From Chiloscyllium plagiosum (lineage: Eukaryota): a DNA stretch of 64,000 bases. The DNA lies in assembly GCF_004010195.1 (NCBI RefSeq), contig NC_057754.1, positions 10,641,239-10,705,238 on the forward strand. The letters are read 5' to 3'. Below the pieces are notes generated by a model. It was not told the DNA's origin, did no database searches, and saw only the letters and a program-made list of their open reading frames with translations. Positions 2,881 to 53,305 of this stretch are shown here, piece after piece. Within the stretch, counting starts at the first letter, position 1, and each line of letters starts with the position of its first letter. A program made the position numbers and the translations under genes.

Positions 2881-3411
2881 CATCCTCAAATTATCCACTT
2901 TAAGCCTTTAAGATTTTTTTTAAAAATTGTTTAAAAATAAAAGAGGCCTGGCCAGTTCTGCCAGTTCAGGTTTTTCTAGTTTTTTCAGCTGTCGCAGTCA
3001 CAATTTGTGTGAGTACCAGAAGGGTTGCAAGCTTCAGTAAATAATTTCTAATTGAATTTCTCCGAAATCTCTCTGGATGGTGCTCCCTCCCAAATATAAG
3101 AATCTATGTTTGAGTTTCCCTTTTTGCCAACTCGTGTGTTTGTAGGATGTTACTATATTGGAACAGTTAACCAGTTATTGAGTATTCAGTTAAGTTTTCC
3201 AACATTCAAGTTATTCTAAATCCTGCTTGCTTTTGGTCATATTTTAACTGTAGTGGTTAAATAAATTTGCATTTTGCATAAAGCTGAGTGGTTTGACCAG
3301 ATGCATCACATCTGGAACACTCACTTCACATCTACCTTTAAAATACGAAAAAGTTAGGGTCTAGGTTACCTTGTTAAAATATTTTGAGGCGGTCTGGCCT
3401 GTTCCATAACA
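2881..3411 (+). mobile_element. Truncated LTR of the Gypsy/Gmr1-like family seen at 55-61 kb
   Basis: Ends ...ggtctggcctgttccataaca, the reverse complement of the LTR terminus at 4612, 55042 and 60407. The left part is cut by the CR1. Confidence 0.75.
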
Positions 3412-3429
3412 GAACTCCGTAACAATTTG

Positions 3430-4130
3430 TCCACAATGGGAAATGGGTGATGTTTCCTCATTCCTGCTTCATTCCCCTCTTGCAGAGCAACACAGAATCT
3501 GATGGCACTGTTTGGTTTTGACACTACAACTGCAGGGCTCACAGCAGAAAAGGATGATGTGGATATAGCAATCCAAGAAGAGTAGTGTGAAGTAGAAGAC
3601 AAAATAATCATCATGAAAGAGGAGGTGTTCAAAGTGTTGGAATCATTGGAAGTGTATAAGTCACAAGGATGTTGCCAGGGTTGGAGGGTTTGAGTTAAAG
3701 TGAGAGGCTGAATAAGCTGGAGCTATTTTCCCTGGAGTGTCAGAGGTTGAAGGGTAATCTTATAGAAGTTTATAAAATCATGAAGGACATAAATCAGGTG
3801 AATAGCCACTGTCTTTTCCCCAGGGTGACAGAATCCAAACCTTGAGGGTGCAGGATTAAAGTGAGTGGGGAAAGATTTAAAAGGGACCTGAGGGGCAACT
3901 TTTTCACACAGTGGTTGTTGCGTATATGGAATGAACTGCCAGAGGAAGTGGTGGAATCTGGTAGAGTAACAACATTTAAAAGACATCTGGATGATGATAT
4001 GAATGGGAAGGGCTTAGAGGTATATGGGTCAAGTGCTGGCAAACGGGACTAGATTAATTTAGGATATCTGATTGGCCAGAAGTTGAACAAAAGCATCTGT
4101 TTCCACACATTACCACTCTACAACTCTAGA
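3430..4130 (+). mobile_element. CR1 RT C-terminal/3' end fragments
   Basis: GERFKRDLRGNFFTQ..WNELPEEVVE translation (3861-4052) and CR1 3' tail. Confidence 0.85.
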
Positions 4131-4611
4131 CACATGTGAGCTGTGGGAGGGCTGGAGAAACCCAAATGTGGTTTCATTATTTAAAAAGTGGACCAAGGAA
4201 ATGCCAAACAGCTATAGGCCAGTCAACCTTGCCTTGGTGATGGGCAATTATAAGAACTAACCCTGAGAAATCAGATAACCTGTCACTTAAAAATGCATTA
4301 GACCATAAGAAATAAGAGTGGAAGTAAGGCCATTTGGCCCATTGGGTCCACTCCACCATTCAATCATGGCTGATGGGCATTTCAACGCCACTTACCCGCA
4401 CTCTCCCCGTATCCCTAGTCAGGGATAGTCAGCATTGCTTTGTTAAGTCAAGCTTAACAAATTTAATTGAATTCTTTTAGGAATTGGCAAGGAGGATTGA
4501 TGTGAGGATATTGTTTAAATGGATTTTGTTAACTCTAACCCTAACCCTATCGCAATCACATTTGACAAGGTCCCACATAGCAGACTGGTCAGCATATGCA
4601 TAAATACATAT

Positions 4612-5273
4612 TGTTATGAACCAGGCCAGACCCCCTCAAAACATTTCAAGAAAGTAACCCAGACACTAACTTCGCTCGTTTTTTTAAGCAGCTGTAACGC
4701 ACATATTCCAGGAGAGATGTAGCTGGCCAACCGACTTAGTTTTCAACTAAACAGAATTTATTTCTAAGATTACCAAATGAAACACAAACGAGAGAATAGA
4801 ATACTGAATAACAACCTACCCGAATACCCAAAAGATTATATCAGTTTAATGATGCTGTTCATAAAGCTCAAACTTTCCAACTCTGGCAACACCCTTGTAA
4901 TAATTCCCATAAACACCGCTTGGGACTAAAGGTAAAATCAAATACAGGGTCGGACAACAGAGAGGCAAGAGAGAGAGTACCAGCCTGGAACTGTCTCTTT
5001 GGGTCCAGCAGCTTTTTTTCACACAGCTCTTAAAAACCAAACCAAACCAAACCAGAGAAAAGCTGAGCTGGGAGAACTGGCTGCTCCCCTTCCATTGTAC
5101 ACGTGTTGTTTAAACTTGAAAGCCTTTGGCCTGAGGCAGTATCCGTTATCTACCCTCAAACCAGCCCTAAAACCCTTCAACCCCAGACTTTTTGGAGTCT
5201 GTGTCTTCTACGACCTCTCTGGAAATAAAAGCCAACCACAACATAACCTTGTTAAAGGCGCATCATCACCACA
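4612..5273 (-). mobile_element. Solo LTR (TG...CA) with 4-bp TSD ATAT, inserted in a decayed CR1
   Basis: TSD atat at 4608-4611 and 5274-5277. Clear homology to the LTRs at 55042 and 60407. Confidence 0.85.
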
Positions 5274-5313
5274 ATATACAAACAAAATATACCATGGGCT
5301 ACAGGGTAATGTG

Positions 5314-5443
5314 GTAAAAACAATGACTGCAGATGCTGGAAACCAGATTCTGGATTAGTAGTGCTGGAAGAGCACAGCAATTCAGGCAGCATCCGAGGAC
5401 AGGCAAAATCGACGTTTCGGGCAAAAGCCCTTCATCAGGAATT
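5314..5443 (-). mobile_element. Short non-autonomous Penelope-derived element carrying a hammerhead motif
   Basis: 8-bp direct repeat gtaatgtg at 5306-5313 and 5444-5451. Same family as 17087, 28271 and 31138. Confidence 0.75.
5407..5442 (-). ncRNA. Minimal type I hammerhead ribozyme motif
   Basis: Minus strand reads attc-CTGATGA-a-gggc-tttt-gccc-GAAA-cg-TC-gatt: intact core, 4-bp stem II, GUC triplet, palindromic minimal stem III. Confidence 0.75.
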
Positions 5444-5999
5444 GTAATGTGTTGAATTGTAGTTTCTGTCTTCAGTGCTTCTGATATAATTCCAGTTGCA
5501 TGTTCCAGCAGTATTGAAAGCAGTGAATTTGTTACAGAGCTCAGCATTTTTGATTATTCAGGACAACGTTCAAGCTTTTAGTGCTGTGTTCTGTTATGGG
5601 TGAGAGTTTGCATGGCCTGGGGCTAGTGTGGCTCCTTTACACTGGATCTGAATCCATATCCATCCATTGCTCTCTTTTATGTTTGCCCTCCCGGATCTCC
5701 CCTCTGCCTTTGTCTAACTTTCTTTGGCCCTCACAATGGGTGTATTTTAACTCCGTTCTATTTTTTAATGTTACCTCTGCTGTTGTGCCTAAATTAGGTT
5801 TGCACCACTGCCTATCCCCTGACTGTGTGTTGCTGATATACCAATTTTACCTTCCTATAGAATCTTTAATCGTCAGAAATTGTTTTCACTGCATTTCTGT
5901 GAACTGCTATTCTGCAAATTATGAGCTTCGGCCAGTTCACATAACCTCCATTTTTAATTTTGTGGTTTCTGTCTCACTCTCTTTGTACTGTCTAAATCA

Positions 6000-7495
6000 G
6001 TTCCATGGGATTATCCTAAGATTCTCTGTGAAGCCAAGAGGAGATTGCAGAACCCTTGGCTTTGATCTTTATGCTGACATTGTCTACAGGAATAGTGCCA
6101 GAAGACTGGAGGACAGCAAATGTCCCCTTGTTCCAGAAGGGGAGTAGAGGCAACCCTGGTAACTATAGACCAGTGAGCCTTACTTTGATTGTGGGTAAAG
6201 TGTAGGAAAAGGTTAGAAGAGATAGAATATATAATAATCTAGAGAGGAATAAGTTGGTTAGGGATAGTCAACATAGTTTTGTGAAGGGTAGGTTATGTCT
6301 TATGAATCTTATTCAGTTCTTTGAGATGGTGACCTAAGTGGTGGATGAGGGTAAAGTGGTCGTTGTGTGTGCAGATTTCAGTAAGGCATTTGATAAGGTT
6401 CTCCACGGTGGGGTATTGCAGAGGGATTGAGGGTGATTTATCGATTTGGATCAGAATTTGGCTAGCTGAAAGAAGACAGAGGGTGGTTGTTGATAGGAAA
6501 TGTTCATCCTGGAATTTAGTTACTAGTTGTGTACCGCAAGGATCTGTTTTGGGGTCATTGCTGTTGGTCATTTTTATAAATGACCTAGATGGGGACGTAA
6601 AAGGATGGGTTCGAAATTTGCAGATGTCGCTAAGGTTAGTGGAGTTGTAGATCATGCTGAAGGATGTTGCAGGTTCCAGAGGGACATATATAAGCTGCAA
6701 AGCTCGGCTGAGAGGTGGCAAATGGAGTTTAATGTGGAAAAGTGTGATGTGATTAATTTTGGAAGGAGTAACAGGAATAAAGAGTACTGGAATAATGGCA
6801 AGATTGTTGGTAGTGCAAATGAGCAGACAGATCTTGATGTCCATATACATAGATCCCTGAAAGTTGCCACAAAGGTTGATAGGGTTGTTAAGAATGCATA
6901 GTGTGTTAGCTGTTATTGTTGGAAGGATCGAGTTTCAGAGATCACACTGCAACTGTACAAAACTCTGGTGCAGCCGCACTTGGAATATTGCGTACAGTTC
7001 TGATCACCACATTATACGAAGGATTTGGGAGCTTTGGAAAGGGGTCAGAGGAAGTTTACTAGGATGTTGCCTGGTATGGAGGGAAGGTCTTATGAAGAAA
7101 GGCTGAGCGACGTGAGATTGTTTTCGTTAGAGAGAAGATTGAGAGGTGATGTAATTGAGACATATAAGATAATCAGAGGGTTAGATAGGATGGACAGTGA
7201 GACCCTTTTTTCTCAGATGGTGATGGCTAGCATGTGGGGACATAGCTTTAAATTGAGGGGTGATAGATACAGAACAGATGTCAGAGGTAGTTTCTTTACT
7301 CAGCAGTAGAGGCATGGAACGCACTGCCTGAAGCAATAGTAAACTCGCTGACTTTAAGGGCATTTAAATGGTTATTGGATAAGCATATGGATGAAAATGG
7401 AATAGTGTAGGATAGATGGGCTTCAGATTGCTTCACAGGTTGATGCAACATTGAGGGCTGAAGGGCCTGTACTGTGCTATAATGTTCTATGTCTG
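6000..7495 (+). mobile_element. CR1 RT and 3' end, decayed
   Basis: [30 protein letters not shown] motifs in ORF fragments 6345-7309. Confidence 0.9.
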
Positions 7496-7527
7496 TCTGC
7501 ACAGAGTGTGCGAAGAGATTTATTAAT

Positions 7528-7946
7528 GTTGTGGTTCTGTTCGCCGAGCTGGAAGTTTTTGTTGCAATCGTTTCGTCCCCTGGATAGGCGACATCATCAG
7601 TGCTTGGGAGCCTCCTGCGAAGCACTTCTTTGATGTTTCCTTAAGGATAGCTGGTCGTGTCGTTTCGTGGCTAGTTGATGTTCATGTATGCGGATTGTTA
7701 GCTGTCTTCCTGTTTGTCCTATATAGTGTTTTGTGCAGTCCTTGCATGGTATTTTGTACACTGGTATTTTGGGACAGACCACTATAAACACTGGAGGAAA
7801 CATCAAAGAAGCGCTTCGCAGGAGGCTCCTAAGCACTGATGATGTCGCCTAGCCAGGGGACGAACGTTTGCAACAAAAACTTCCAGCTCGGCGAACAGAA
7901 CCACAACAACGAGCACCCGAACTACAAATCTTCGCACAAACTTTGA
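7528..7946 (+). mobile_element. Penelope-like element, 5'-truncated with inverted segment; GIY-YIG fragment and two hammerhead motifs
   Basis: Minus ORF VYKIPCKDCTKHYIGQTGRQLTIRIHEH (GIY-YIG). Inverted repeat of about 113 bp (7528-7640 vs about 7796-7907). 12-bp TSD agatttattaat at 7516-7527 and 7947-7958. Confidence 0.85.
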
Positions 7947-8019
7947 AGATTTATTAATTCATTAATTAATTAAACCAGGTGACACATCAGCAAGTTCACA
8001 CTGACGAGAGATTGTTTCA

Positions 8020-8955
8020 GTTTAAAGGATCGGTACTGGGTCCACTGCTTTTTGTCATTTATGTAAATTATGTACAGTTTGTAAATTTGCAAATGACACC
8101 AAACTAGATGGTGTAGTGAACAGCGAAGAAGGTTACCTCAGAGTATAGCAGGGTCTTGATCAGATGGGCCATTGTCCTGAGGAGGGGCAGATGAAGTTTA
8201 ATTCAGATAAATGTCAGATTCTGCACTTTGGAAAGACTTAATGGTAAGGTCCTGCAACATGTTGTTGAACAGAAATACCTTGGAGTGCAGCTTCATAGTT
8301 CCTTGAAAGTGGAGTGGCAGGTAGATAGGATAGTGAAGAAGGTGTTCCGTATGCTTGCTGTTATTGGTCAGTCCATTGAGCATAGGAATTGGATAGTCTG
8401 TGCAGGACAGTGGTTTGGCCACTTTTGGAATATTGCATGCAATTCTGTCTCCCTGCTACAAGAAAGATATTGAAACTTGAATGAGTTTAGAAAAGATTTA
8501 CAAGGATGTTGCCAGAGTTGGAAAGTTTGAGCTTTATGGACAGGTTAAATTGGCTGGGGCTACTTTCCCTGGAACCTGGGATGCTGAGGTTTATAAAATT
8601 ATGAGGGGCTTGGATAGAGTAAATAAACAAGGTCATTTCCCCGCTGTAGGATAATCCAAAACTAAAGGGCATAGGTTTAAGGTGAGAGCGGAAAGATTTA
8701 AAAGGGACATAAAGGGCAACTTTTTCATGCAGAGGGTGGTGCGTGTATGGAATGAGCTGCCAGAAGAAATAATGAAGTCCAGTACAATGACAACATTTAA
8801 AACACATCTGAATGGGTATATGAATAGGAGGGTTTTGAGGGATATGGGCCAAATGCTCACAAATGGGACGAGATTAGTTTAGGATTTCTGGTCGACATGG
8901 ACGAGTTTGGCTGAAGGGTCTGTTTTCCTTGCTGTACATCTCTCTGACTCTATAA
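8020..8955 (+). mobile_element. CR1 RT/3' end, decayed
   Basis: ERFKRDIKGNFFMQRVVRVWNELP and a ctctgactcta tail. Confidence 0.85.
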
Positions 8956-9241
8956 CTACGGATGCTGGAAATCTGTAACAAAGAAAATACTGGAGAAACT
9001 TTGCAGGTCTGACAAAATCTGTGATATAAAAACAGAGATAAGGTCCCTAGTCTGGTGATCATTCATCGGAACTAAAATCAGCTCGGAAATGGTGGTATAG
9101 ATGCTGATTAATGGGTGAGTTGAGGGAAAAGAAAGGCTGATGAATGGAGACAGACCCTCGGGAAAGAGACACTTATTGGGAAGGCTGTGAGCAAATGGCT
9201 GGGAATTTGGGATGGATTTGCAGCGTTTCTCCAATGAGAGA

Positions 9242-9552
9242 ATACTGCCTTATTCGCTGCAAATGATTAATCCCGGGGCAGAGAAAGGGAGGATCCCGCC
9301 ACTCATCTCACAATAGGACCTGGCTGATTGACGGCAGCCCATTGGCCAATAGGAGGAGAGTGGGCGGGGCTGGCAGTGCAAGGGTCCTCCAACCAATGGG
9401 AATGAATGAGGGACGGGGCTAGTGGTACGACATATGCCCGTATGATCCAGCAGAGACTGGGAGTGTAGGGGTATCAGTGTGGACTGGGAGGTTTTATAAA
9501 CACCCGAATTAGAAAGTCCCGCGTTTGCAGCAAACGGGAAAACATACGGGCT
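9242..9552 (+). promoter_or_regulatory. Inverted paralogue of the ZNF promoter module at 14482-14878
   Basis: Collinear reverse-complement similarity: ggatcccgccactca, gctgattgacggca, ggtcctccaaccaat.ggaatgaa, and a 28-nt exact match. Contains CCAAT and GC boxes. Confidence 0.7.
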
Positions 9553-9592
9553 TTCCCTTACTCTCAATGTATCTTCTCCCAGAGACGTGCTG

Positions 9593-9725
9593 ATGAGAAA
9601 CTGTTGGAAAAGCTCAGCAGGTGTCTCAGACGAAGGGTCATTGGATCCAAAACGTTAACTCTGATTTCTCTCCCTAGATGTTGCTAGATTGCTGAGCTTT
9701 TCCAGCAATTTCTGTTTTCGTTTCT
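9593..9725 (+). mobile_element. Short Penelope-derived element with degenerate hammerhead
   Basis: cAGACGAa-gggtc...gatcc-AAAA-cg-TT with inverted gctggaaaagctcagca-like arms. Confidence 0.5.
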
Positions 9726-10558
9726 ATAGAGAGTAATCAGGGCCAGAAATCGCACACTACCATGTTATAGTCCAACAGGTTTATTTGAAATCACAAGCTT
9801 TTACAGCGCTGATCCTTGACTTGACCAAGGGGTAGCAGTGGACCCCGCTGAGTTTTTCCATCAATTGCTGTTTATCTTTCTGATTTCCAGCATCATCCTT
9901 TCTCTTGGTGCTTGTGTGAAAAAGAAATAACTTCTTCCCCTGTGCCCTGTATGGTGCACTGAATTTCCAGCATTTCGGGCTGTCCCTCACTCTGATTGTC
10001 CCGTTCCCTGCGACAAATAAACTCCAAGAGTTCCTTGCACTTGTTGGAAGTGAGGACAGAGGAGACATGGGAGCCGAAGAGCTCAAAATAAATTTGTGCT
10101 TTACAGATACGATAAAGGCACAATAGGTTTAACAAAAAGCTGATCTATATAATTTGTCACCCAACTAGGTAACCAGACATGTGGTGTTTAGAAACATCAT
10201 CAGAACCCAACCCAGAAAACATGGTTTGAATATAGGTAACAGTGGAATCAAGAAACGATTCAGAGAGAGATTCTTGGGAACTCATTGATGATTAACCAGG
10301 CCTAATGAACCAAGAAATCCCTTTTCACAAATCGTGTAGGTGGATAATCTTTACCCAGTGTGTATATGTTGATATACAGTAACGATAAGATACTTTCCAA
10401 AACCTACCCTCCAGTTACAGGGTAACTGTTACAAATGTAAAGAAAATTATCTCCATTTTACAAGCTTTTACTGAGCAGGAATGAACAACATCAGTACAAA
10501 TGATCCAAAGACCACAGTTCATTCCTTGATGTGAGTGAAAGCAAAATCCTTCAGTTGG

Positions 10559-11431
10559 TTATTTGTGACTTTGCTGGTGTCTCAGCAGGCTGGATGATCG
10601 AATGAATCCCTTCCCACACTCTGAACAGGTGGATGGTTTCTTCCCAGTGTGAACCTGCTGATGTGTCAGCAAGTGAATTGCTTGAGTGAATGCTTTCCCA
10701 CACTCAGAACAGGTGAATGGTCGCTCTCTAGTGTGAATTCGCTGGTGTGTTAGCAGGTTGGATGACTGTGGGAATGCCTTCCCACACACAAAACAGGTGA
10801 ATGGTTTCTCCCCAGTGTGAGTTCGCCGGTGTATCAATAGATGAGATGAGCAAGTGAATCCTTTCCCACACTCAGAACAGGCAAATGGCCTCTGCCCAGT
10901 GTGAATTCGCTGGTGGGTCAGTAGATGAGTTGCCTGCGTGAATGCTTTCCCACACTCAGAACAGGAGAATGGTCTCTCCCCAGTGTGAACTCGCTGATGT
11001 ATCAGCAGGTTGGATGACTGAGAGAATCCCTTCCCACACTCAAAACAGGTGAATGGTTTCTCCCCAGTGTGAATTCGCTGGTGTCTGAGCAGTTCGGATG
11101 ACTGAGTGAATCTTTTCCCACAATCAGAGCAGGTGAATGGTCTTTCCCCAGTGTGAACTCGCTGGTGTATCAGCAGTTTAGATGACCGAGAGAATCCCTT
11201 CCCACAATCAGAGCAAGTGTATGGCTTCTCCCCAGTGTGACTGCGTTGGTGAGTTTCCAGCTGGGATTGGTAAAGAAATCCCTTCCCACAATCCCCACAT
11301 TTCCAAAGTCTCTCCCCAGTGTGACTGCGCTGGCGTTGGGACATTTCAGATGAATCTTCACTGACCCTTCCACACACAGACGATTTGTGTTTCTCCCCAA
11401 TGTGAATGGTGCTTTTTCCTTCAATGTTCAA
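10559..11431 (-). CDS. C2H2 zinc-finger protein, 9 intact tandem fingers plus 1 degenerate; first ATG is at 11344 (261 aa)
   Basis: Uninterrupted ORF with CxxCx12HxxxH repeats and TGE(K/R)P linkers. The ORF-track start at 11431 is TTG. No KRAB or SCAN domain seen. Confidence 0.9.
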
Positions 11432-12359
11432 AATCTTGAAATTATCATAAACAGAGTGACTATTGGATTTGGATGTGGTTTTTTTTCTTCAGTCAACCTT
11501 TCAAACAGAATACAAAGTTAGAGACAGAGAAACAAGAAGAAGACACACAGGTTGTGAAACTGCACGAAATTAATCTTGTCATTTGTGGAGCTGACACAGA
11601 GGGAAACTGCTGGATTATCATTAACACTGAACTAGTTCATAAATGTCCTTGAGGGAAGGGGACTAGTCAATGTCTACACAAAATTATGGAAAGGTACAGA
11701 GGCATGAGAGTTGGCAGGGGTGGGATGCATTTTATAGATTTGCAACTCAGTCCTGTTCCTCTTTTCTTCCCATATCTTTCTAACCCTCTGAAGGACTAAG
11801 GAAAAGTGCAGAAGCAAAATGATGGAAATCGAAAATAAAAACAGAAGATGCTGGAGATACTCAGCAAGTCTTGCATCACCTGAAATGCTAACAGATGCAG
11901 GAACCATTGCAACGAGAAGAAACCTTTAGATGATCATACAAAACACCACCATATAGGTTACACGTTAAAAGTCAGAAAATGGGACTTGAGTGATAGGTGT
12001 TTGACGATCAGCATGGATACAATGGGTACATTGTGTTCTACAATTTTATATCAGAGTCTTGGACCCAATTTTGATCCCTGTTTCTCTGAGACTTTTTTTT
12101 AGTAAGCAGACAGGAGTGGCAAGCATTGGATCATTGAAATTAAACATTGGCCTTCACAGTGATAGGAGGAGAGTATGGTGTAGGGATATCCTTCTGTAAG
12201 GGCTACAGTGAGCACACACCTGGAATACCATGTGCACTTTTGTTCTCCTGTCCCTGGATGGATGCCCTGGCCATTGTGATAGTGCAAAGAGGGTTAACCA
12301 GATTGATTCCTGGGATGTCAGGATTGATGTATGAAGAGAGGCTCAATCCTCCTTTAATC

Positions 12360-17086: not shown

Positions 17087-17292
17087 TGAGTGTGGTGCTG
17101 GAAAAACGCAGCAGGTCAGGCAGCATCCGAGGAGCAGGAGAATCGATGTTTCAGCCATAAGCCCTTCCAGATGGAGGGCTTATGCCCAAAACATCGATTC
17201 TCCTGCTCCTCAGATGCTGCCTGACCTGCTGTGCTTTTCCAGCATCATGCTCTCGACTCTGATCTCCAGCATCTGTAGTCCTCACTTTCTTC
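17087..17292. mobile_element. Palindromic Penelope-derived short element, 13-bp TSD
   Basis: TSD ttatttgacattt at 17074-17086 and 17293-17305. Inverted arms of about 80 bp meeting at degenerate hammerhead cores. Confidence 0.8.
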
Positions 17293-26439: not shown

Positions 26440-29360
26440 CCTTCTTCTAAACCTTTTTCTTTCTATATATGCATCCAAATGCCTTTTCAAATATTGTTAA
26501 TATACCCATCTCAACAACATCCCCAGCAGCTCATTTCATATGTGTACCACCCTCTGTGTAAAAAAAGTTGCCCCTCAGGTTCCTTTTTATACTTTCCCTT
26601 CTAACTTTAAACTGATGCCTTCTAGTCCTCGATTCCCTAACGCTGGGAAAAAAGACTCAGTCCATTCACTCTACCAATGCCTCTTGTGATCTTAAACACT
26701 TCCATAAGATCCCCCTCAGTCTCCTGTGCTCTAAAGAAAAACGTCCTAGCTTGGCTAACATTTCCCTGTAACTCAGATCATTGAGTCCTGGCAACATCCT
26801 TGTAAATTTCTTCTGCACTCTTTCCAGTTTAATAGCATTCTTCCTATAATAAGGTGACCAAAACTGAACACAATACTCCAAGTGCAGCCTCACCAACGTC
26901 CTGTATAACTGCCACATAAGTTCCCACTTCTATACGGAATGCCCTGACTGATGAAGGCCAGTGTACCAAAAACCTTCTTCACTGCCCTGTCTACCTGGGA
27001 CTCCACTTTCAGAGAATCGTGCACATGAACTGCGACGTCTCTCTATTTCATACTCTCCTTAAGGCTGTACCATTCACCATGAAACTCCTACCTTGAATTA
27101 ACTTTCCAAAATGCAAGACCACACACTTATCTATTTTAAACTCTATTAACCATTTCTTGGCCCACTTTCCCAGCTGATCAAGGTCCTGCTGCAATCTATG
27201 ATAACCTTCCTCACTTTCCATGATACCGCTATTTTAGCATCATCTGCAAACTCACTAATCATGTCTTGTACATTCTCATCCAAATCATTGATATAGATAA
27301 CAAACAGCAATGGACCCAGCACAGACCCCTGAGGTACTTCACTAGTCCCAGGCCTCCAGTCCAACAAACATCCTTCCACTATTACCCTCTGCTTTCTACC
27401 ATTAAGCCAATGGTGTATCCAATTTGCCAGCTCCCTCTGGATTCCATGTGGTCTAACCTTCCACGGTAGCCAACCATACAGAACCTTATCAAATGCCTTA
27501 CTGATTCCCTGTAGACTACGTCTACAGCCCAGCTCTCATCAACCTTCTTGGTCACTTCATCACAGAACAGTATGTAATGTTTGCGGTGTGATCCCCCACG
27601 CACAAAGCCATGCAGACTACTCCTAATCAAACCCTGTCTTTCGAAATACATGTATATTTCATCCTGTAGAACCTTCTCAAGTCACTTACTTACCACAGTG
27701 TGAGACTTCCTAGTTTGTAGTTCCCAGAATTTTCCTTGCAGCCCTTCTTGAACAAGGGCAGAACATTCGCTAACTTCCAGTCTTCCAGGAACTTACCTGT
27801 GGCTAACGATGGTGCAAACATATCAGCCAGGGCTCCCGCAATTTCTTGTCTAGCCTCTGGATATGTCTGGTCAGGACCAGGAGATTTATCCACCTTCATA
27901 CATTCTAACACATCCAACACCTCCTCTGCTGTGACACAGACTGTCCCCACGATATCACCACTAACTTCCCCAAGTTCCCAAATCTTCATTTCTTTTTCCA
28001 TGGTTAACATGAGGAGGAGATACTCATTGCGGATCTCGATCGTCTCCTGCCGTTCTATGTCCATTTTGGTCCTTGAGGGGTTCAAATCTCTCTCTGGTTA
28101 TTCTTTGTCCTTTCATATACTTAAAGACCTTCTTTGGATTCACCCCGATCTTCTCAGCTAAGGTTATATCGTGCCTCGTTTTCACCATCCTGATTTCCTT
28201 TTTCAGTTAGCGCATGTATCCTCGACATACCTCCAGGAATTCCCTTGATCCCAGCTGCCTGTCCCTGAGCTGAAAATGTGTTGCTGGAAAAGCGCAGCAG
28301 GTCAGGCAGCATCCAAGGAGCAGGAGAATCGATGTTTTGGGCATGAGCCCTTCTTCAGGACTTTCTCCTAGAAGATTTTAACCTACTGCAAATCCTCTTA
28401 CAAGGATGCCTTCCTTGAAGTAGCTCTCTTAAAACTTTCTCCTGTCTGTCCCTGAGCCATGCCGCCTTTTTTCTGGTGAAAGCCTCGATATCTGTTATCA
28501 TCCAGGCTTCCCTATTCTTGCCACCTTTGCCCTTCACCTTCACCGGAACATATAAACCTTGACCTCAAGCTATCACGCTTTTGAAGGTCTCCCACATAGC
28601 AGAGGTCCCTTTACCTGCAAACAACCTACTCCAATCAACCCCTGCAAGCTCCTGTCTAATTACAGCAAAATGTATGAATTTAGAACTTGAATCTGTGGAC
28701 CAGTTTTGTCCCGCTCCAAAACTACTGTAAAATTAATAGAACTATGGTCACTTGTCCCGAAGTGCTCCCCCACTGTCACCTCAGTCACCTGTCCTGCCCT
28801 ATTTCCCAAAAGCAGGTTGAGTTTTGCCCTTCCCGAGTAGGACCCTCTTATATACTGCTTGAGGAAACTTTCCTGAATGCACTTAGCAAATTCCACCTCA
28901 TCTAAGCCCTTAATGCTTTGGCAGTCTCAGTCTTTGTCAGGAAAATTAAAATCCCCTGCTATGACATTGTTAGTACTCCTGCGAGTCTCCCCAGTCTCCC
29001 TGCATATTTGTTCCTCTAATTCCCATTGACTATTTGGGGATCTATAGTACAACCCCAATAATGTCACCAGCCCTTTCTTATTTCTTAGCTCCACCCACAA
29101 AGCCTTACTGGATGAACGTTTAGTTATTTCATCTCTGACTACTGCTGTAATACTTGCCTTAATCAGAAATGCAACACCCCCTCCCCTCTTCGCATTACCT
29201 CTGTCCTGCCTAAAGCACCTGTACCCTGGCACTTTAAGCTGCCAGTCCTGTCCCTCTTTTAGCCATGCTTCTGTAATGGCTATAATATTCCAATCCCACA
29301 TATCTATCCACACCCTGAGTTCACTGGCATTAACCAGTCAGCCGTCTTGCATTGAAATAG
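26440..29360 (-). mobile_element. CR1 ORF2 (EN+RT), decayed
   Basis: ORF fragments 26666-29313 with [24 protein letters not shown]. Confidence 0.9.
28271..28445 (-). mobile_element. Short Penelope-derived element with degenerate hammerhead, inserted in CR1
   Basis: TSD ctgtccctgagc at 28259-28270 and 28446-28457. Minus strand reads CTGAAGA-a-gggc-tcat-gccc-AAAA-ca-TC-gatt. Confidence 0.75.
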
Positions 29361-31137: not shown

Positions 31138-31243
31138 GGCTCTATGCCTGTATTCCTGATGAAAGGCTTTTGCCTGAAACGACGATTTTACGACTCCTCA
31201 GATGCTGCCTGAACTGCTGTGCTCTTCCAGCACCACTAATCCA
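31138..31243 (+). mobile_element. Short Penelope-derived element with hammerhead motif, 14-bp TSD
   Basis: TSD gattagtgggacca at 31124-31137 and 31244-31257. Reads attc-CTGATGA-a-aggc-tttt-gcct-GAAA-cg-AC-gatt. Confidence 0.8.
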
Positions 31244-33401: not shown

Positions 33402-34185
33402 CTCCAGCCTCACAGCCCTCCCTATCTCTGTAATCTCCAGCCTCACAGCCCTCCCTATCTCTGTAATCTCCAGCCTCACAGCCCTCCCTATCTCTGTAAT
33501 CTCCAGCCTCACAGCCCTCCCTATCTCTGTAATCTCCAGCCTCACAGCCCTCCCTATCTCTGTAATCTCCAGCCTCACAGCCCTCCCTATCTCTGTAATC
33601 TCCAGCCTCACAGCCCTCCCTATCTCTGTAATCTCCAGCCTCACAGCCCTCCCTATCTCTGTAATCTCCAGCCTCACAGCCCTCCCTATCTCTGTAATCT
33701 CCAGCCTCACAGCCCTCCCTATCTCTGTAATCTCCAGCCTCACAGCCCTCCCTATCTCTGTAATCTCCAGCCTCACAGCCCTCCCTATCTCTGTAATCTC
33801 CAGCCTCACAGCCCTCCCTATCTCTGTAATCTCCAGCCTCACAGCCCTCCCTATCTCTGTAATCTCCAGCCTCACAGCCCTCCCTATCTCTGTAATCTCC
33901 AGCCTCACAGCCCTCCCTATCTCTGTAATCTCCAGCCTCACAGCCCTCCCTATCTCTGTAATCTCCAGCCTCACAGCCCTCCCTATCTCTGTAATCTCCA
34001 GCCTCACAGCCCTCCCTATCTCTGTAATCTCCAGCCTCACAGCCCTCCCTATCTCTGTAATCTCCAGCCTCACAGCCCTCCCTATCTCTGTAGACTCCAG
34101 CCTCACAGCCCTCCCTATCTCTGTAATCTCTAGCCTCACTGCCCTCCCTATCTCTGTAATCTCCTCCAGCCTCACAGCCCTCCCT
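33402..34185 (+). repeat. 33-bp minisatellite, about 24 near-identical copies
   Basis: Unit ctccagcctcacagccctccctatctctgtaat. Confidence 0.97.
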
Positions 34186-34609
34186 GTCTCTCATTACTCC
34201 AACTTCATGAACATCTGAGGTATGTGCATTCCTCTAATTCAAGCCTGATAAGGACAACCCATTTTTATTTCTCCAGTTGAAGGCAGTTTCAGATTCCTCT
34301 CCCCGATCTTTAGAATTTCCATCTGAACCCCTCCACCTCTCTACCTCACTTCCCACCTGAAATGATTGACTCCGATGAGTCACCTCCTCTAATATCTCCT
34401 TCTCTGACCTGGTTTCAATTATTCGCTCAATATATCCCTATATTAATTGTATGCTGTACAGAAAAAGGCTCTGCAGCCATCAAGTCTGTGACAGTTAAAA
34501 ATACCCAATTAAATATTCCAATCCCATTTTCCAGCAGTTGGCCTGTAGCTTTATGAGCTTTCACAAGTGTGCATCCAAATATATCTCAAATGTCTCGGAT
34601 CATGTCTTT

Positions 34610-38180: not shown

Positions 38181-38945
38181 ACAGGACTTCTGCACCTGCC
38201 ACACTTAGAGACAGTGAGGTTCAGTGTAATTGTCACTGTGTGATGACATCACACACAAGACCATGGATCATCTGTGTCTGTGAAAACTAGAAATCACCAC
38301 ACATTGTGAAGGGTGGGAGAGAGCCCGAGACGGTGCACAGCTGCTATATTGACAACATTGGATCAATGAGAGGGTGTGATGTTGGGGGTTATAAAGTATG
38401 AGGGCATTTGGAAAATTAGTCAGAGCTAACTGCCCATCGAGCCGGTGAGCAATGGCCATGGGAAGAAATAAACATCTTGCTCTCGCAGAAATCTCAGAAG
38501 GCACTATCTATCAAAAGGTACATTTTCCTGTAAAAGCAATAAAAAAATAAGAAGACGACCCAGAGAGAAGACAGCAGAATTGAAAAGATGGAAGGAAGTA
38601 ACAGATTCGAAAGACCAGAAGGAAGACAGCATAAGAGACTGTGTGGTCTTGAGATTAAGTTAATATAAAGCTTGATAATTTTGTTACTGAAACAGCATTT
38701 TTATAGATTTGGGGTCAGACACTAATTACTTCAGAAAAAGAGGGCTTAGCTTATTAGTTTCTGTTTAGTGATGTCTGTTAGAGTTAGGAAAGTAAATTGT
38801 TTTTTTTTCTTTAAACAGTGGATATCAAGGGTTTTCATTCACTCACTCAGACTTTAACAGATTACAAAGCAAGATGAATTTTTCTGGGTGTTTTGGTTTT
38901 ACTTAGCAGAAGGGTTCAACATCTTGGGTGCTCAACCTCTGGGAT

Positions 38946-39285
38946 TTAGACAGCGTTGTATAGATCGGGTCTAGGATTTGGACAGGATTGGATAGATCGG
39001 GTCTGGAATTTGGACAGGATTGGATAGATTGGGTCTGGAATTTGGACAGGGTTGGATAGATCGGGTATGGGATTTGGACAGGCTTGGATAAATTGGGTCT
39101 GGGATTTGGACAGGGTTGGATAGATCAGGTCTGGGATTTGATTAGGGTTGGATAGATCGGGTCTGGGATATGGACAGTGTTGGATAGATTGGGTCTTGAA
39201 TTTGGAGAGGATTGGATAGATCGGGTCTGGGATATGGACAGGGTTGGATAGATTGGGTCTGGGATTTGGACAGGGTTGGATTGAC
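38946..39285 (+). repeat. 32-bp tandem repeat, about 10 copies, in the LTR element leader
   Basis: Unit gggtctgggatttggacagggttggatagatc. Confidence 0.95.
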
Positions 39286-41931
39286 CTGGACAGATCAAGA
39301 CCAGGATCTGTACAGATTTGGACAGATTTGAACAGACTTGCCAGCAGAATTTTAAACACACATGGGGATTAATGTGCTAGATCTTCCAATCAAACTTAGG
39401 TGAGAAAAAATATGTTTTAAGTTCAACAATTATAGTTGGTTAGATTAAAAGTGAGAGAACTGGCACTTTCAGTAAGTAAATGTTTTCTGGGCGTGGAAGA
39501 AGTGACATTGGGAGTTTTACAAAAAGTGAGCAAAGAAAAGCTATTGCAATTGGCAGACAAGCTGGAGCTGGGGTTGCCTGTGTCTCTGAAAAATGGTGAG
39601 GTTATTGCTGAAACAGCGCAACATTTAAATGTGCTGGAAAGGCCATTAGAATCTTTGGAAAAGCCTAAAATTCAATTGCAAATGAAGCAGCTTGAATTTG
39701 AGGAAAACGTAAGGGAGAGAAAATTCTTAGCGGAGCAGAGAGAAAGAGAGAGAGCGAGAGAATGAGAGAGAGAACAAAGAGAGAGAGAGAGTTTGAACTT
39801 CAGAAGTTGCAAATTAGTCAGGGAAGTCAAATGGAGATGGAAATGGAGATGAAAGGAGAATGTAAAGGTGTAAACACACATGTTAAAACATTGCCACATT
39901 TTTGATGAGAAAGATGTCAAAGCCTTTCTTATTTCATTTGAAAAAATGGTTAGGCGGATGGAATATCCAGAAAACTTGTGGGTAATGCTAGCTTGGACTA
40001 AGGGTGGTAGGCAGGGCTAGAGAACAGCGCTGTCATGGATGAGGGGTCAAGAGATTATAAAAATGTCAAACAGGCTATTTTGAGTGACTCTGAATTGGTA
40101 GCAGAAGCATATAGACAGTGGTTCAGAAACATAAAGAAGGAACCAGTTATCTCTATTATTGAGAGATGAAAGTATTTACACTCTTCCTGACATTTTACCT
40201 AAAAGAGTAATATTTTGTGCAATAAATGGATAGAAATTTAGCGTTCCCCTGTGTAAGATCAGGTTGGAGAGCCAAATCAAGACCGGGGAAGTGACAGTGG
40301 GAGTGATTAATAGAATGTCAGTTCCAGGAATACAGTTTGCCCTTGAAAATGACCTAGCAGGTGGGGTGATGCCTACTATCATAAATTATGGCAAGAAGGA
40401 AAAACTAAAGAGAAAGACAAAGGAGTTGAGGTTCAGTTAGCAGACACCCTGTTTGATAAAATAGTACAGGGAAAATCTGAACAAGTAAAGGGTCAGGCAG
40501 CGGTATTTAGTCCTGAAAGGCTAATGGACTTACCACAGAAAGATGAGGCGATAAAAGATCTCTATCATGATGCATACTCAGAAAAGGAATCAGAATGCAT
40601 TCCCGAGGGTTATTATCTTAGAGATAGAATTCTAAGATGAAAATGGAGACCATGGCAGGTTAGTGCAGAGGAAAAATGGGTGAAGTCCAACAGACTGTGT
40701 CACCTGTAGCATACAGACAGGAAGTATTGCAGGTAGCAGATGAATTACCAGTAGGAGATCATCTAGGTGTGGGCAAGATCTCAGGCTAAGGTACAAAAGC
40801 ACTTCTGTTGGCCTGGACTGCATAAGGATGTGGTTGAATTTGCTGTGCATGTCATACATGCCAAATGGTAGAGATGCCACAGGCAGTAATAAAACTAGCA
40901 CCTTTCTTACCAATTCCCGTATTTGAAGAAGTTTTCATACGGGTTATGATTGACAGTGTAGGTCCCCTCCCTGAAACTATAAGTGAGAACCAATATTTGC
41001 TAACAGTAGTAGTTGTGTCTACCAGATTTCCGGAGGCAATTCCATTCCGGATTGTTAAGGCAAAAGAGGTGGTGGAGGAGTTGGTAGCTTTCTTTATCCA
41101 GTACCGGTTACCTAGGGAGATTCAGTCAGATCAAGATTCTAATTTTACTGCTAAACTATTTAAGAAAGTCATGGATAATTTAGGAATACAATGCTTTAAA
41201 TCAAGTGTGTATCATCCTGAATCCCAGGGAATTTGGAAAGTTGGCATCCGACCCTAAAGGTATCTTATTCATATTTTTTGTCATTACAGATGCCATAAAT
41301 GAATCTTCTCAGTTTATTCATTTTGAGTTAACAGTTGGACACCAAGTGAGAAGGCCTTTGAAATTAATTAAAGAAAAATTGATAGGACCAAAGTCAGAGA
41401 CCTCACACTTGGATTATTTATCAGAGGTGAGGGAGAGTTTAAACCAGGCAGGGGAATTAGCTAAACAGCACCTGAAGAGGCCACAGCATAGAATGAAGCA
41501 TGTGGCAGATAAAAATTCGAAAATGTGGACATTTTCCCGCTGGGATAACGTATTTGTGTCATTTCCAGTAGTAGGAGCTCCCTTCAAAGCCAGGTTTAGT
41601 GGTCCCTATCAAATTGAGAAAAGTGGAGTCAGGTAAACCATCTGGTAAAGATACACAGAGGAAAAGACTGTTTCAGGTATGTCACGTGGATATGTTGAAC
41701 CCTTACTATGATAGACACAGGGAAGTGGAGAACCAGGTGTCAGTTACTGCCCAGCAGAGTGAGGAATCAAATCCAGATAACGTGGATGTGCCTCAAAATA
41801 AGTTAAATAATGAGGGAGTCTTTGAAGAATGGGATAGGATAGTCAGATATCTGTCTCAGGAGCAAAGAACCGGGTTGAAAAGTTTGTTGCAGCAATATGA
41901 GGACATATGTAGGAATAGAATGGGGAAGACT

Positions 41932-42871
41932 CAACACTGGAGCTCTCCAGGGGTACGTACTAAGCTCCCTACTGCACTCACTGACTACTCATGATTGCAT
42001 CGCCAAATACCAGACTAATGCCATTTACAAGTTCGATGATGCCACCACCATAGTCGGTCGATTCTCAGATGGCGACAAAACAGACTACAGATGGGAGGTG
42101 GAAGACCTGGAAAAATGATGCATTGAGAACAACCTAGCTCTCAATGCTGGCAAAACCAAGGAACTAATTGTTGACTTTCAGCGGGATGTTACTCATGCCC
42201 CCCTACACATTAACAGCACAGAGGTGGAACGAGTGGAGAGCGTTAAGCTTCTCGGAGTGGTCATCCACAACAAGCTTTCCTGGATTCTTCATGTGGATAC
42301 ACTGTTTACAAAGGCCTAACAACATCTCTTCTTCCTCAGGCAGCTGAGGAAATTGGGCATGATGGCGAATACCCTCGCCAATTTTTATAGGTGCACCATC
42401 GAGAGCATTCTGTATGGATGTATCACTGCCTGGTATGGCAACTGTACCATCCAAGATCAGAGATGGTTACAGAGAGTGGTGAACTCGGCCCGGACAATTA
42501 CAAAGGCCAAACTCCCATCTATAGAATCCATCTACCAGGCCCGCTGTCAAAGAAAGGCCGCCAGCATTCTCAAAGATCCATCCCACCCTGGCATTGTTTC
42601 TCTACAACCTCTACCATCAGGGAGAAGGTACAGAAGCCTGGACACACACACCAGCCAGTTTTGAAACAGTTTCTACCCGACTGTTGTTAGAATACTGAAT
42701 GGACTCATAAACTCTTAACATTCGCCTGTACCTGTGTTTTTGTTTTTTGCTGCTGTTTAACTATTAATTACTTATCTATGCTATTTAACCCTGTGATCTG
42801 CCTGTATTGCTCACAAGACAAAGCTTTTCACTGTGCCCTGGTACACGTGACAATAAATTCAATTCAATTCA
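41932..42871 (+). mobile_element. Rex1/Babar-like LINE 3' fragment
   Basis: YKFDDATTIVG; LANFYRCTIESILYGCITAWYGNC; LPSGRRYRS; (aattc)n tail; TSD aagact at 41926-41931 and 42872-42877. Confidence 0.85.
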
Positions 42872-43358
42872 AAGACTGATGCTATTGTGCATAATGTGGA
42901 AGTAGGGAACGCTGTTCCATTAAAACAACACCCCCACAGGCTTAATCCTCTCAAAGCCGCACAAGTTCAGAATGAAGTGGACGTGATGTTCAATGAAGAT
43001 ATCACCGAACCAAGTCAGACCGAGTGGAGTTCACCAATCATGTTAGTTCCTAAACTTGACAGAACTCAACAATTTGCTGTGAAACATCGGAGGGTCAACA
43101 CCGTTACTAAAGTCGACTTATATTCAATATCCAATATCCAGTTGCTGGAGGACTGTTTTGAGAAAGTTAACCCAGCCCTTACATCACAAGCTTGGACTTA
43201 CTGCGTGGTTATTCGTGGGTACCTTTATTGGAGAAAGCAAAAGAAGTTTCTGTGTTTGTAACCTCAAATGGGCTTACCAATTCACAGTGATGCCACATTC
43301 CAAAGGCTCGTGAACAGATTTGTGGCAGGATTCAGTACTTGTCAGTTTATATCGATGA

Positions 43359-51169: not shown

Positions 51170-52555
51170 AGCCATGTGATCTGTCTGCTGGCTCAGCAGG
51201 GTGGATGAGTGAACTAACTGCTTTTTAAACACAGAGCAGGTGAATGATTTCTCCCCAGTCTGAATTCGCCAAAGTTCTGAGAGTTGAGATGATCACCTGA
51301 ACCCAGTCCCACAGTGAAAGTACCTGAAAGGTCTCTCATCATGTGAACATGTTGATGGGACATCAGTTTCACAGAACTTCGATAGCGCTTCCTACACAGT
51401 AGGCATTTAAGAGGTCTCTACTCAATGTGAACACATTGATGATAAAACAGTCCCTAGGCGTTTGTGTTGTGATTCCCACAAGGAGCCATTTAAAGGGTGT
51501 CTCCTCAGTGTGAACACATTGATGACAAGTCAGTCCCAAGAGTGTGTGTAGTAATTCTCGCAGTCTGGGCATTTACACAGTGTGAACTTGCTAGTGTCTC
51601 AGCAGGTTGGATAACCGAATGAATCCCCTCCCACACTCAGAGCAGGTGAATGATCCCTTCCCAGTGTGAACCTGCTGGTGTTTGATGGGGTTAGAAGATT
51701 ACCAGTCCCACAGAGAGCGCACATGAACAATCTGTCCTTAGTGAACGTCTTGTCCTGGAGCTTTTGTAGCATTTGTCACAGACTGGGAATTTAAAAAGGT
51801 TGTCAGTGGGGAATCCAAGATGGCGGTGACCCAGGAAGACTGAGTCTATAGTGCTCCTCCCAAGACCTGGGCACAGTGGGTCACCTACCCCCTACCAAGC
51901 TCACCAAATCATTTATAAATCATTTATAATAGTTTAGTAACTGAATTAGTGGTTTAATATTACATTTAAGCTACATTTAAGCAACTTTATCCTAAGTTAA
52001 AATGACTAAAGGGAAGGGAGCCCGCAGCTCTCAGCAAGCAGGAACCCCTCCCCCACACTCTCCAGCTGCAGCAGAGGCGTCCACAGCCGCCCCGGGGGAC
52101 TTACCTACAGTAGCAAGNNNNNNNNNNNNNNNNNNNNNNNNNNNNNNNNNNNNNNNNNNNNNNNNNNNNNNNNNNNNAGTCTGGACTTTTAAAAATTCTG
52201 TGTGAATACATTGGTCGAACAGCCCCCTGAAATGTTTCCAACAGTTCCCACAGTCCAAGCATTGACATGGTCTCTCCTCAGTGTGAATGAGCTGGTGTTG
52301 CAGCAGGTTAGATGACTGAGTGAATCCCTTCCTACACATTGAGCTGGTGAATGGCCTGTTACTGGTGTGACTGTGTCCATGTATTTCCAGCTCAGAAGAG
52401 GAAATGAATTCCTCCCCACAATCCCCACATTTCCACAGCCTCTCCCCAAAGTGAGTGCGTTTGTGGTTTGTGAGTATGATGATGGCTGAAGCTTTGTTCA
52501 CACATGTAACACGTGTACAGTTTCTCTCCACTGTGAACAGGCTTTTCCCTTCCAT
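51170..52555 (-). pseudogene. C2H2 ZNF pseudogene, interrupted by an L1-like insertion and a gap
   Basis: MEGKSLFTVE...WKCGDCGEEF..QSSNLLQHQLIHTEERP. Frameshifted or degenerate fingers continue at 51170-51800. Confidence 0.8.
51808..52117 (+). mobile_element. L1/Tx1-like LINE 5' end (5'UTR and ORF1 start), rest hidden in the gap
   Basis: Starts ggggaatccaagatggcgg (YY1 motif) downstream of a TT/AAAA site. ORF MTKGKGARSSQ from 52002. No catalytic domain is visible. Confidence 0.55.
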
Positions 52556-53305
52556 GTTCAATTGTGATAAAGTTCTGTTTGTGATAAATTGGGCAACTCC
52601 ATCAAATCGAGGTGTGATGGCTAAATCTTCCCTTTCTGATATCCTGTGAAGTCAATGTCAACCAAAACAAAATAAATTGAGAGGGAATCAATCACATGAC
52701 TCTGGCTTCTCTGTGAGAATCGAGAGAGCGAAAGGCAGGGAATTAAAGGTAGCGATTTTAGACACTTACAACTTGATGAGAACTTTGCCAGAATCTTCCA
52801 AACACTTGGTCTCCACCGGCAAGAAGGAGCAGGTTAACAGGTAGATGTGAACACTATCACGTCCAAGTTTAGATAAGCAAGATAAAGAGCAGTGTTCCAT
52901 TGGCTGACAGTAAATTTATGCAGGACACTGATTTAAGATTTTGGGCCAGAGTTATTGGGAGATTTGAGAAAGGAATCTTATATTACTTTCATTTTACTCA
53001 ATACTTACATTCACAGGCCAATAGTATTCATTGCTGAATATATAATAACTCAAGTGACTCTGTAAGGTGTTGATGTGTTGTTTGATTTGAGTTTTCGAAC
53101 TGCAAATTCTTTTCAAATGTCTTGTCAAATAAGCTTACAAAAACTACTGCTGTCAGTCCAGGACAGAAATTAATTAAAAATAAGCAGTTCTCTTTTTTAA
53201 AACTGTATTTAGTTGCTTCCCTTCTCACCTCCTGCTCATAATCTCCATTCCTCTCAGTTCAAGAGAATGATTCACAACATTCTCTCTCCTGGCCTGAGAT
53301 TACTG

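Follow-up and report, generated by a model that had tools for sequence, protein, structure and literature searches.

How a complete hammerhead ribozyme motif came to lie in a 130-bp non-coding stretch of shark DNA (Chiloscyllium plagiosum) flanked by a short direct repeat is the question raised by this locus. The stretch could be a unit of a free-standing mobile family, a fragment of a Penelope-like element (PLE), a retrozyme monomer or a ribozyme retained for the host. We analysed the locus within the whole surrounding stretch of 64,000 nucleotides (hereafter the window), to which all coordinates refer.

A Penelope-type minimal hammerhead on the minus strand

The motif was located on the minus strand (5443-5406 in window coordinates) with type I topology, and a core check on this strand recovered the complete CUGAUGA/GAAA/GUC core, the 4-bp stem II and the palindromic ACGU of the original prediction. 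Helix I, in which 5443-5439 face 5410-5406, forms four of its five pairs and has a single U-U mismatch. A strict hammerhead descriptor returned two motifs in the window, the focal one and a second at 58310, compared with 0.03 motifs per window in 300 first-order Markov shuffles. The focal motif shares its type I topology, full core, extra nucleotide separating position 9 from 10.1, G10.1-C11.1 pair, palindromic helix III (15.2-16.2) and short helix I (4-5 bp) with the PLE minimal hammerheads characterised in passages of Cervera and De la Pena (2014, PMC4209133). Its 4-bp helix II, however, is shorter than the 6-8 bp given there for Schistosoma and Drosophila, a length that is typical but not universal among published PLE examples. 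These results confirm that the motif at 5406-5443 is real and represents a Penelope-type minimal hammerhead. The hammerhead check against Rfam that had been proposed for it came back empty, with no match at gathering score over the whole window and seven matches at E <= 10 within 5200-5600, none of them to a hammerhead. Weak, sub-threshold miRNA-like Rfam matches in the flank were set aside.

Table 1 Coordinates of the hammerhead, the insert and related features in the window.
Feature	Position	Strand	Remarks
Core C3-U4-G5-A6-U7-G8-A9 (CUGAUGA)	5438-5432	minus	strict descriptor and core check
Unpaired extra A between positions 9 and 10.1	5431	minus	
Helix II, 4 bp GGGC/GCCC	5430-5419	minus	UUUU loop; G10.1-C11.1 kept (G5430-C5419)
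GAAA box G12-A13-A14-A15.1	5418-5415	minus	
Palindromic ACGU, rudimentary helix III	5415-5412	minus	closing only in a dimer
C17	5411	minus	predicted cut 5411/5410
Helix I, 5' strand	5439-5443	minus	coincides with the 5' edge shared by the insert and many family copies
Helix I, 3' strand	5406-5410	minus	
130-bp insert	5314-5443	minus	hammerhead, ~55-nt body and 37-nt optional tail; probable PLE terminal module; lies between two 8-mers
Optional 37-nt 3' tail	5314-5350	minus	absent from sibling 31138-31243; several contig pieces end at 5348-5351
Target-site duplication, left copy	5306-5313	plus	GTAATGTG
Target-site duplication, right copy	5444-5451	plus	GTAATGTG
Sibling of the same subfamily	31138-31243	plus	89% over 94 nt; 14-bp duplication; tail-less; starts 13 nt further 5'; U16.1 lost
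Fold-back sibling	17087-17292		13-bp duplication; inverted tail-less copy head-to-head at the hammerhead with a tailed copy; neither core intact
Sibling	28271-28441		16-bp duplication (15/16 alike); tail-less minus copy and 82-nt plus-strand piece; G12 lost
Second hammerhead family, in-genome reference	7528-7946		internally deleted Penelope/Poseidon-type PLE; direct and inverted pLTR; 38-nt tail on inverted end only; 12-bp duplication
GIY-YIG fragment of second family, 41 residues	7645-7767	minus	Pfam GIY-YIG E 0.0076, below cut-off

The insert and its target-site duplication

The two copies of the octamer are spaced exactly 130 bp apart. Of 200,000 random 130-bp segments, 1.1% are flanked by an 8-bp direct repeat when 3 nt of slack are allowed at each end, and the duplication alone is modest evidence for insertion. 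Its position nevertheless matches the edges of the repeat family in three out of three sequencing runs, which lends it support, and the 130-bp insert with an 8-bp duplication has therefore been borne out. The insert contains both sides of the predicted cut site (5411|5410) and was thus copied from uncleaved RNA, and both of its ends lie away from that site. On the sense strand its 3' end is a short U-rich stretch located 125 nt after C3, compared with 88 nt in the closest sibling, a difference of 37 nt.

A tandem-repeat scan and inspection of the letters gave no poly(A), simple-repeat 3' end or tandem repeat at the insert. Window scans returned no tRNA gene and no Rfam structural-RNA match at the insert, and none of the 18 matches to a B-box pattern fell within 5314-5443. 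A Pol III SINE was ruled out by the missing tRNA/7SL/5S head, B box and A-tail. A 43-codon open frame across the insert had no protein relative (0 of 4 candidates) and is not regarded as coding, and the frame opened by an ATG inside the hammerhead core closes after 18 codons. A sigma-70 promoter scan, a bacterial pattern irrelevant to a vertebrate host, found nothing.

Copy number and edges of the family

Public DNA contigs from one run of organism A and two runs of a related organism B were matched to 5000-5750. Summed contig depth in five bins inside the insert amounted to 1.6-4.2 million in organism A and 1.9-6.9 million in the two runs of organism B, as against contig depths of 17.3, 7.25 and 12.5 in single-copy flank (7-25 in the flank bins near 5468-5623). 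The resulting insert/flank ratio of 0.9-6 x 1e5 serves as an order of magnitude, summed contig depth not being equal to copy number, and the focal insert is by this rough measure one of about 1e5 related copies. A marker at 5400 reached roughly 39,000 single-copy depths in organism A compared with 3,000-4,000 in organism B, which suggests that the focal subfamily is, in rough terms, ten times more abundant in organism A. The left flank at 5052-5285 is itself a repeat, of lower abundance than the insert (depth 2,000-40,000).

The family has sharp edges at 5313 and 5442 in all three DNA runs. Among the loose ends listed (18 of 1,022), 586, 975 and 906 contigs in the three runs continued behind 5442 with a letter agreement of 0.32-0.33, and 472 contigs of one run carried unlike letters before 5313. 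The consensus of the loose ends behind 5442 begins with shared letters in every run. Since longer copies are clipped at 5442 as well and their consensus opens with shared letters, the contigs attest numerous independent junctions at 5442 or slightly beyond it and do not give the share of the family that stops there. Among the 12 of 46 matches listed, a few contigs connect 5442 with 5313 or with 5405/5408 at a depth of 18-36, which corresponds to roughly one or two loci per joint; these joints are probably rare head-to-tail tandems, either of the complete unit or of just the hammerhead, and candidates for natural dimers or retrozyme seeds.

Sibling insertions in the window

Four further family segments, 81-89% identical to the focal copy, are distributed over three insertions in the window (Table 1), and target duplications accompany all four family insertions (8, 13, 14 and 16 bp). 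The five segments are all short, and their starts, like that of a distant relative at 9627, fall between -18 and about +6 nt relative to C3. Under simple random truncation, such clustering of 5' starts would have a probability of about 4e-5 for four insertions with an assumed mean of 300 nt, and of 2e-3 with a mean of 100 nt. The 82-nt piece at 28360-28441 begins and ends with the 9-mer of the family 3' tip, with 65 nt in between; it includes an ATG that opens a frame of a few codons before stops occur, and has no second copy in the window. At this one locus, the 65 nt may represent template beyond the tail, which would fit a template running on past the tail and hence a longer PLE RNA. Decayed older relatives of the focal 3' module were observed at 8950-9060, 9590-9720, 9750-9895 and 11835-11885, one of them a fold-back with a 5-bp helix II (C3 at 9627).

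Age of the insertion and decay of the cores

In organism A, a contig spans 5416-5750 with no differences. In both runs of organism B, the orthologous contig matches from exactly 5444 onwards with 9 differences in 306 nt (~3%), while the 66-67 letters before 5444 have no match to the insert. This strongly suggests an empty site with a single GTAATGTG in organism B, the joint itself being absent among the 15 of 56 matches listed. The focal insertion is most likely young and looks lineage-specific.

The full core is kept in one of the five family segments of the window, namely the focal copy, and is broken in the other four: segment 31156 has lost U16.1, segment 17168 has lost U4, A9 and G12, segment 28358 has lost G12, and the inverted arm of the 17 kb sibling lacks the start of the core. 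The recurring losses at G12, 16.2 and C11.1 fall on CpG sites, and a change of C17 to U, likewise at a CpG, accounts for 9-20% of the depth of contigs on the insert. Private changes elsewhere in the focal copy are few (5360, 5380). The core is thus intact because the insertion is recent, its older siblings having decayed largely at CpG, and intactness is no sign of selection. The focal copy is mobile-element debris and probably inert where it was inserted.

Penelope-like elements in the window

A second hammerhead family at 7528-7946 carries a minimal hammerhead of its own in the direct pLTR (C3 at 7600, minus strand). Its GIY-YIG fragment returned 14 proteins with 77-100% identity, the best at 95-97% from reverse transcriptase proteins labelled Hemiscyllium ocellatum and Chiloscyllium punctatum, and PF00078 occurs together with PF26215 in 4 of these 14. 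The labels point to a shark of the bamboo or epaulette type as the most likely host. In the PLE proteins tied to this family, the ORF runs into the hammerhead codons. Comparison of the focal family with this protein-confirmed PLE revealed close agreement in anatomy, with tails of 37 and 38 nt, duplications of 8-16 and 12 bp, and a head-to-head inverted copy in both. Passages of PMC8557442 and PMC3846280 name an optional tail of 30-40 bp and an inverted copy next to the element among the traits of PLEs, and the EN+ PLE units of these sources share with the focal family the optional tail, a head-to-head inverted 5'-truncated copy (here at 17087-17292, not in the focal copy) and solo pLTRs. Duplication length is variable in the focal family, 8-16 bp as opposed to 8-10 bp in the rotifer paper, and the 5' ends, which spread along the element in the EN+ PLEs described there (PMC8557442, PMC3846280), are concentrated at the hammerhead edge in the focal family.

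A PLE profile search of the window matched only the two other families, and neither a reverse transcriptase (RT) nor a GIY-YIG domain could be tied to the focal one. Outside the window, a hammerhead-pattern scan of metagenomes gave no loci. The 36 loci found with a pattern for the body (19 metagenome, 0 viral, 17 prokaryote-genome) all matched over just 18-35 nt, with no other part of the element present, and were rejected as chance.

Two side observations concern other PLE sequences. Residues 419-458 of a protein annotated as a MAP3K7 isoform (P0002) correspond to the PLE GIY-YIG fragment, which is probably there through exonisation of a repeat or an annotation error. A third PLE family at 58050-58430 has an intact-looking minimal hammerhead at 58310 (plus strand) beside a minus-strand fragment that is 43-53% identical to the C-terminus of shark PLE proteins.

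Fold and activity of the ribozyme

Ribozyme activity of the lone focal copy is doubtful. Helix III cannot close in a monomer, and the focal family has no intact partner copy in the window. One raw RNA run matched to the stretch yielded 0 reads, a result that does not bear on expression. For the 39-nt motif, a nearest-neighbour model, which leaves tertiary contacts aside, gave -11.3 kcal/mol for the active dimer, -11.4 kcal/mol for each misfolded monomer (-22.8 for two) and -24.6 kcal/mol for the most stable inactive dimer. In the MFE fold of the monomer, which has a z of about -1.5 to -2, the core is base-paired to the ACGU arm, and this structure is not evidence for a hammerhead fold. According to passages of PMC4209133, published minimal motifs showed no cleavage as monomers and weak cleavage as dimers, and one of nine Xenopus retrozyme dimers is reported to cut (bioRxiv 2026.07.22.740005).

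Origin of the insert

We consider it probable that the insert arose not long ago as a short reverse-transcribed copy of an EN+ PLE's terminal module, the part made up of pLTR end and tail that bears the hammerhead, and that this lone copy is a passenger, intact because it is recent. A PLE protein would nick the target site, and reverse transcription would begin at the outer of two internal starts, the outer one lying about 125 nt and the inner one about 88 nt downstream of the core. The enzyme would then copy uncleaved RNA through the ribozyme and stop at the 5' edge of helix I, the simplest options being that the template RNA begins there or that the enzyme stops there, and repair would leave the 8-bp duplication. 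We favour the first option, with reverse transcription initiated close to the 5' end of a PLE transcript and running off where that transcript begins. The edge at 5442 and the upstream letters of the longer sibling resemble an initiator (consensus YYANWYY). A transcription start inside the pLTR is described for PLEs of Drosophila and Chlamydomonas in passages of PMC2377424 and PMC8557442. A splice acceptor as the cause of the 5' edge was rejected, no AG preceding the edge in the sibling that extends upstream. As a dimer-type ribozyme, the hammerhead would work, if at all, in a tandem transcript of the parent element and with the help of protein. Counting against a PLE by-product are the lack of any RT or GIY-YIG sequence linked to the family in the searches above and the clustered short 5' ends, which are equally expected from a dedicated short master.

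Such a master is the basis of a possible, if rather unlikely, alternative, namely a dedicated non-autonomous mini-element with its own start, protein-binding and RT start sites that is propagated from short masters and mobilised in trans by a PLE, SINE-like but without a Pol III head. The sharp recurrent ends at 5442 and 5313, the uniformly short segments of the window and the roughly tenfold excess of the focal subfamily in organism A favour it, and non-autonomous PLE derivatives are described in passages of PMC8557442 and bioRxiv 2026.07.22.740005. It is opposed by the existence of longer copies, to which the shared letters behind 5442 and a sibling with its start 13 nt further upstream attest, by the sibling that seems to include sequence past the 3' tip and by the missing Pol III elements. 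The proposal of a SINE-sized, ribozyme-bearing non-autonomous element consequently holds in part: the Penelope-type hammerhead, the retro-insertion with duplication, the short unit, the recurrent ends and a very high copy number all stand, but independence as a non-autonomous family is less well supported, the lack of a tRNA head, B box and A-tail and the same two siblings fitting a copy made from a longer PLE RNA. A stronger version, which we regard as unlikely, would make the 130/93-bp unit a self-sufficient shark mini-retroposon whose RNA starts at the initiator-like A at the helix I edge and carries a PLE binding site and two RT starts, with about 1e5 copies derived from short masters and a recent subfamily burst in one lineage. 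If this were true, the copies would map the template start and both RT starts at base resolution and would test the hammerhead fold as a protein-binding or 5'-end signal instead of a nuclease.

It is very unlikely that the insert is a monomer of a non-LTR retrozyme, that is, a unit-length RNA cut from tandem arrays by the hammerhead, circularised and reinserted. The few, probably head-to-tail joints between 5442 and 5313 or 5405/5408 would suit such an origin, as would the retrozymes reported in the one chondrichthyan genome examined in bioRxiv 2026.07.22.740005. However, the ends of the insert are not at the cut site, the copy is solo with no tandem array at the locus, the motif is of the minimal PLE type and not of the canonical retrozyme type outlined in passages of PMC7229834, and the tail and fold-back forms point to PLE integration. 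That selection has kept the ribozyme for a host function at this locus is extremely improbable, as the intact core alone speaks for it, whereas the insert is absent at the junction in organism B, the few private changes imply that there was no time for decay, and nearest-neighbour energies speak against the active fold.

Comparison with known systems

The focal copy is an ordinary young PLE minimal-hammerhead insertion of a kind known since 2014. In passages of the paper by Cervera and De la Pena (PMC4209133), PLE minimal hammerheads are mostly dispersed single copies, present in thousands and ascribed to truncated PLEs; the hosts named there are fishes, coelacanth, frog and reptiles, sharks not being among them, and the copy numbers of 4,000-9,000 in coelacanth and Xenopus compare with the rough 1e5 of the focal family. 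A close parallel is the Poseidon PLE of Anolis carolinensis (PAc), for which passages of Frangieh et al. (2024, PMC11167929) report two internal RT starts downstream of the hammerhead that define a tail, cleavage by the hammerhead only in the presence of protein, and a main substrate that consists of uncleaved RNA. PAc shares with the focal family an uncleaved template, 3' ends located slightly more than 100 nt downstream of the hammerhead and a spacing of one tail-length between two such ends. In PAc, however, the ORF starts inside the hammerhead (PMC11167929), whereas the ATG in the focal core opens the 18-codon frame mentioned above and no ORF could be tied to the family. Non-LTR retrozymes resemble the focal copy as short non-coding hammerhead repeats related to PLE pLTRs that also occur as dispersed monomers, but they are described in passages of PMC7229834 and bioRxiv 10.64898/2026.07.22.740005 as tandem arrays with cleavage-bounded circular monomers, in contrast to a solo copy with a target duplication and ends off the cut site. 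A published description of the focal shark family was not found in the literature, Repbase and Dfam lying outside the scope of this search, and the chondrichthyan retrozyme lists of the preprint may include the family.

The focal copy itself matters little. A very large set of insertions that start at the helix I edge, span an uncut site and have one of two fixed 3' ends nevertheless documents which RNA the enzyme copies in nature and is of some use, and the role of the PLE hammerhead is still described as unsettled in passages of PMC11167929 and PMC8557442. Short units with masters of their own would constitute a SINE-like class that depends on PLEs in sharks; otherwise, the units would show that PLE transcripts start at the ribozyme.

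Other features of the window

The remainder of the window comprises C2H2 zinc-finger ORFs and retroelement debris. Zinc-finger ORFs were found on the minus strand at 10559-11488 (9 zf-C2H2 matches) and 52031-52651, and a GC-richer stretch with CCAAT and GC-box-like words at 9300-9520 looks like a host promoter. Minisatellites occupy 33402-34191 (33 bp, 23.8 copies, 98% matches) and 38938-39281 (32 bp, 10.8 copies), and broken ORFs at 40838-43261 resemble, as judged by eye, the integrase and RT of an LTR retrotransposon.
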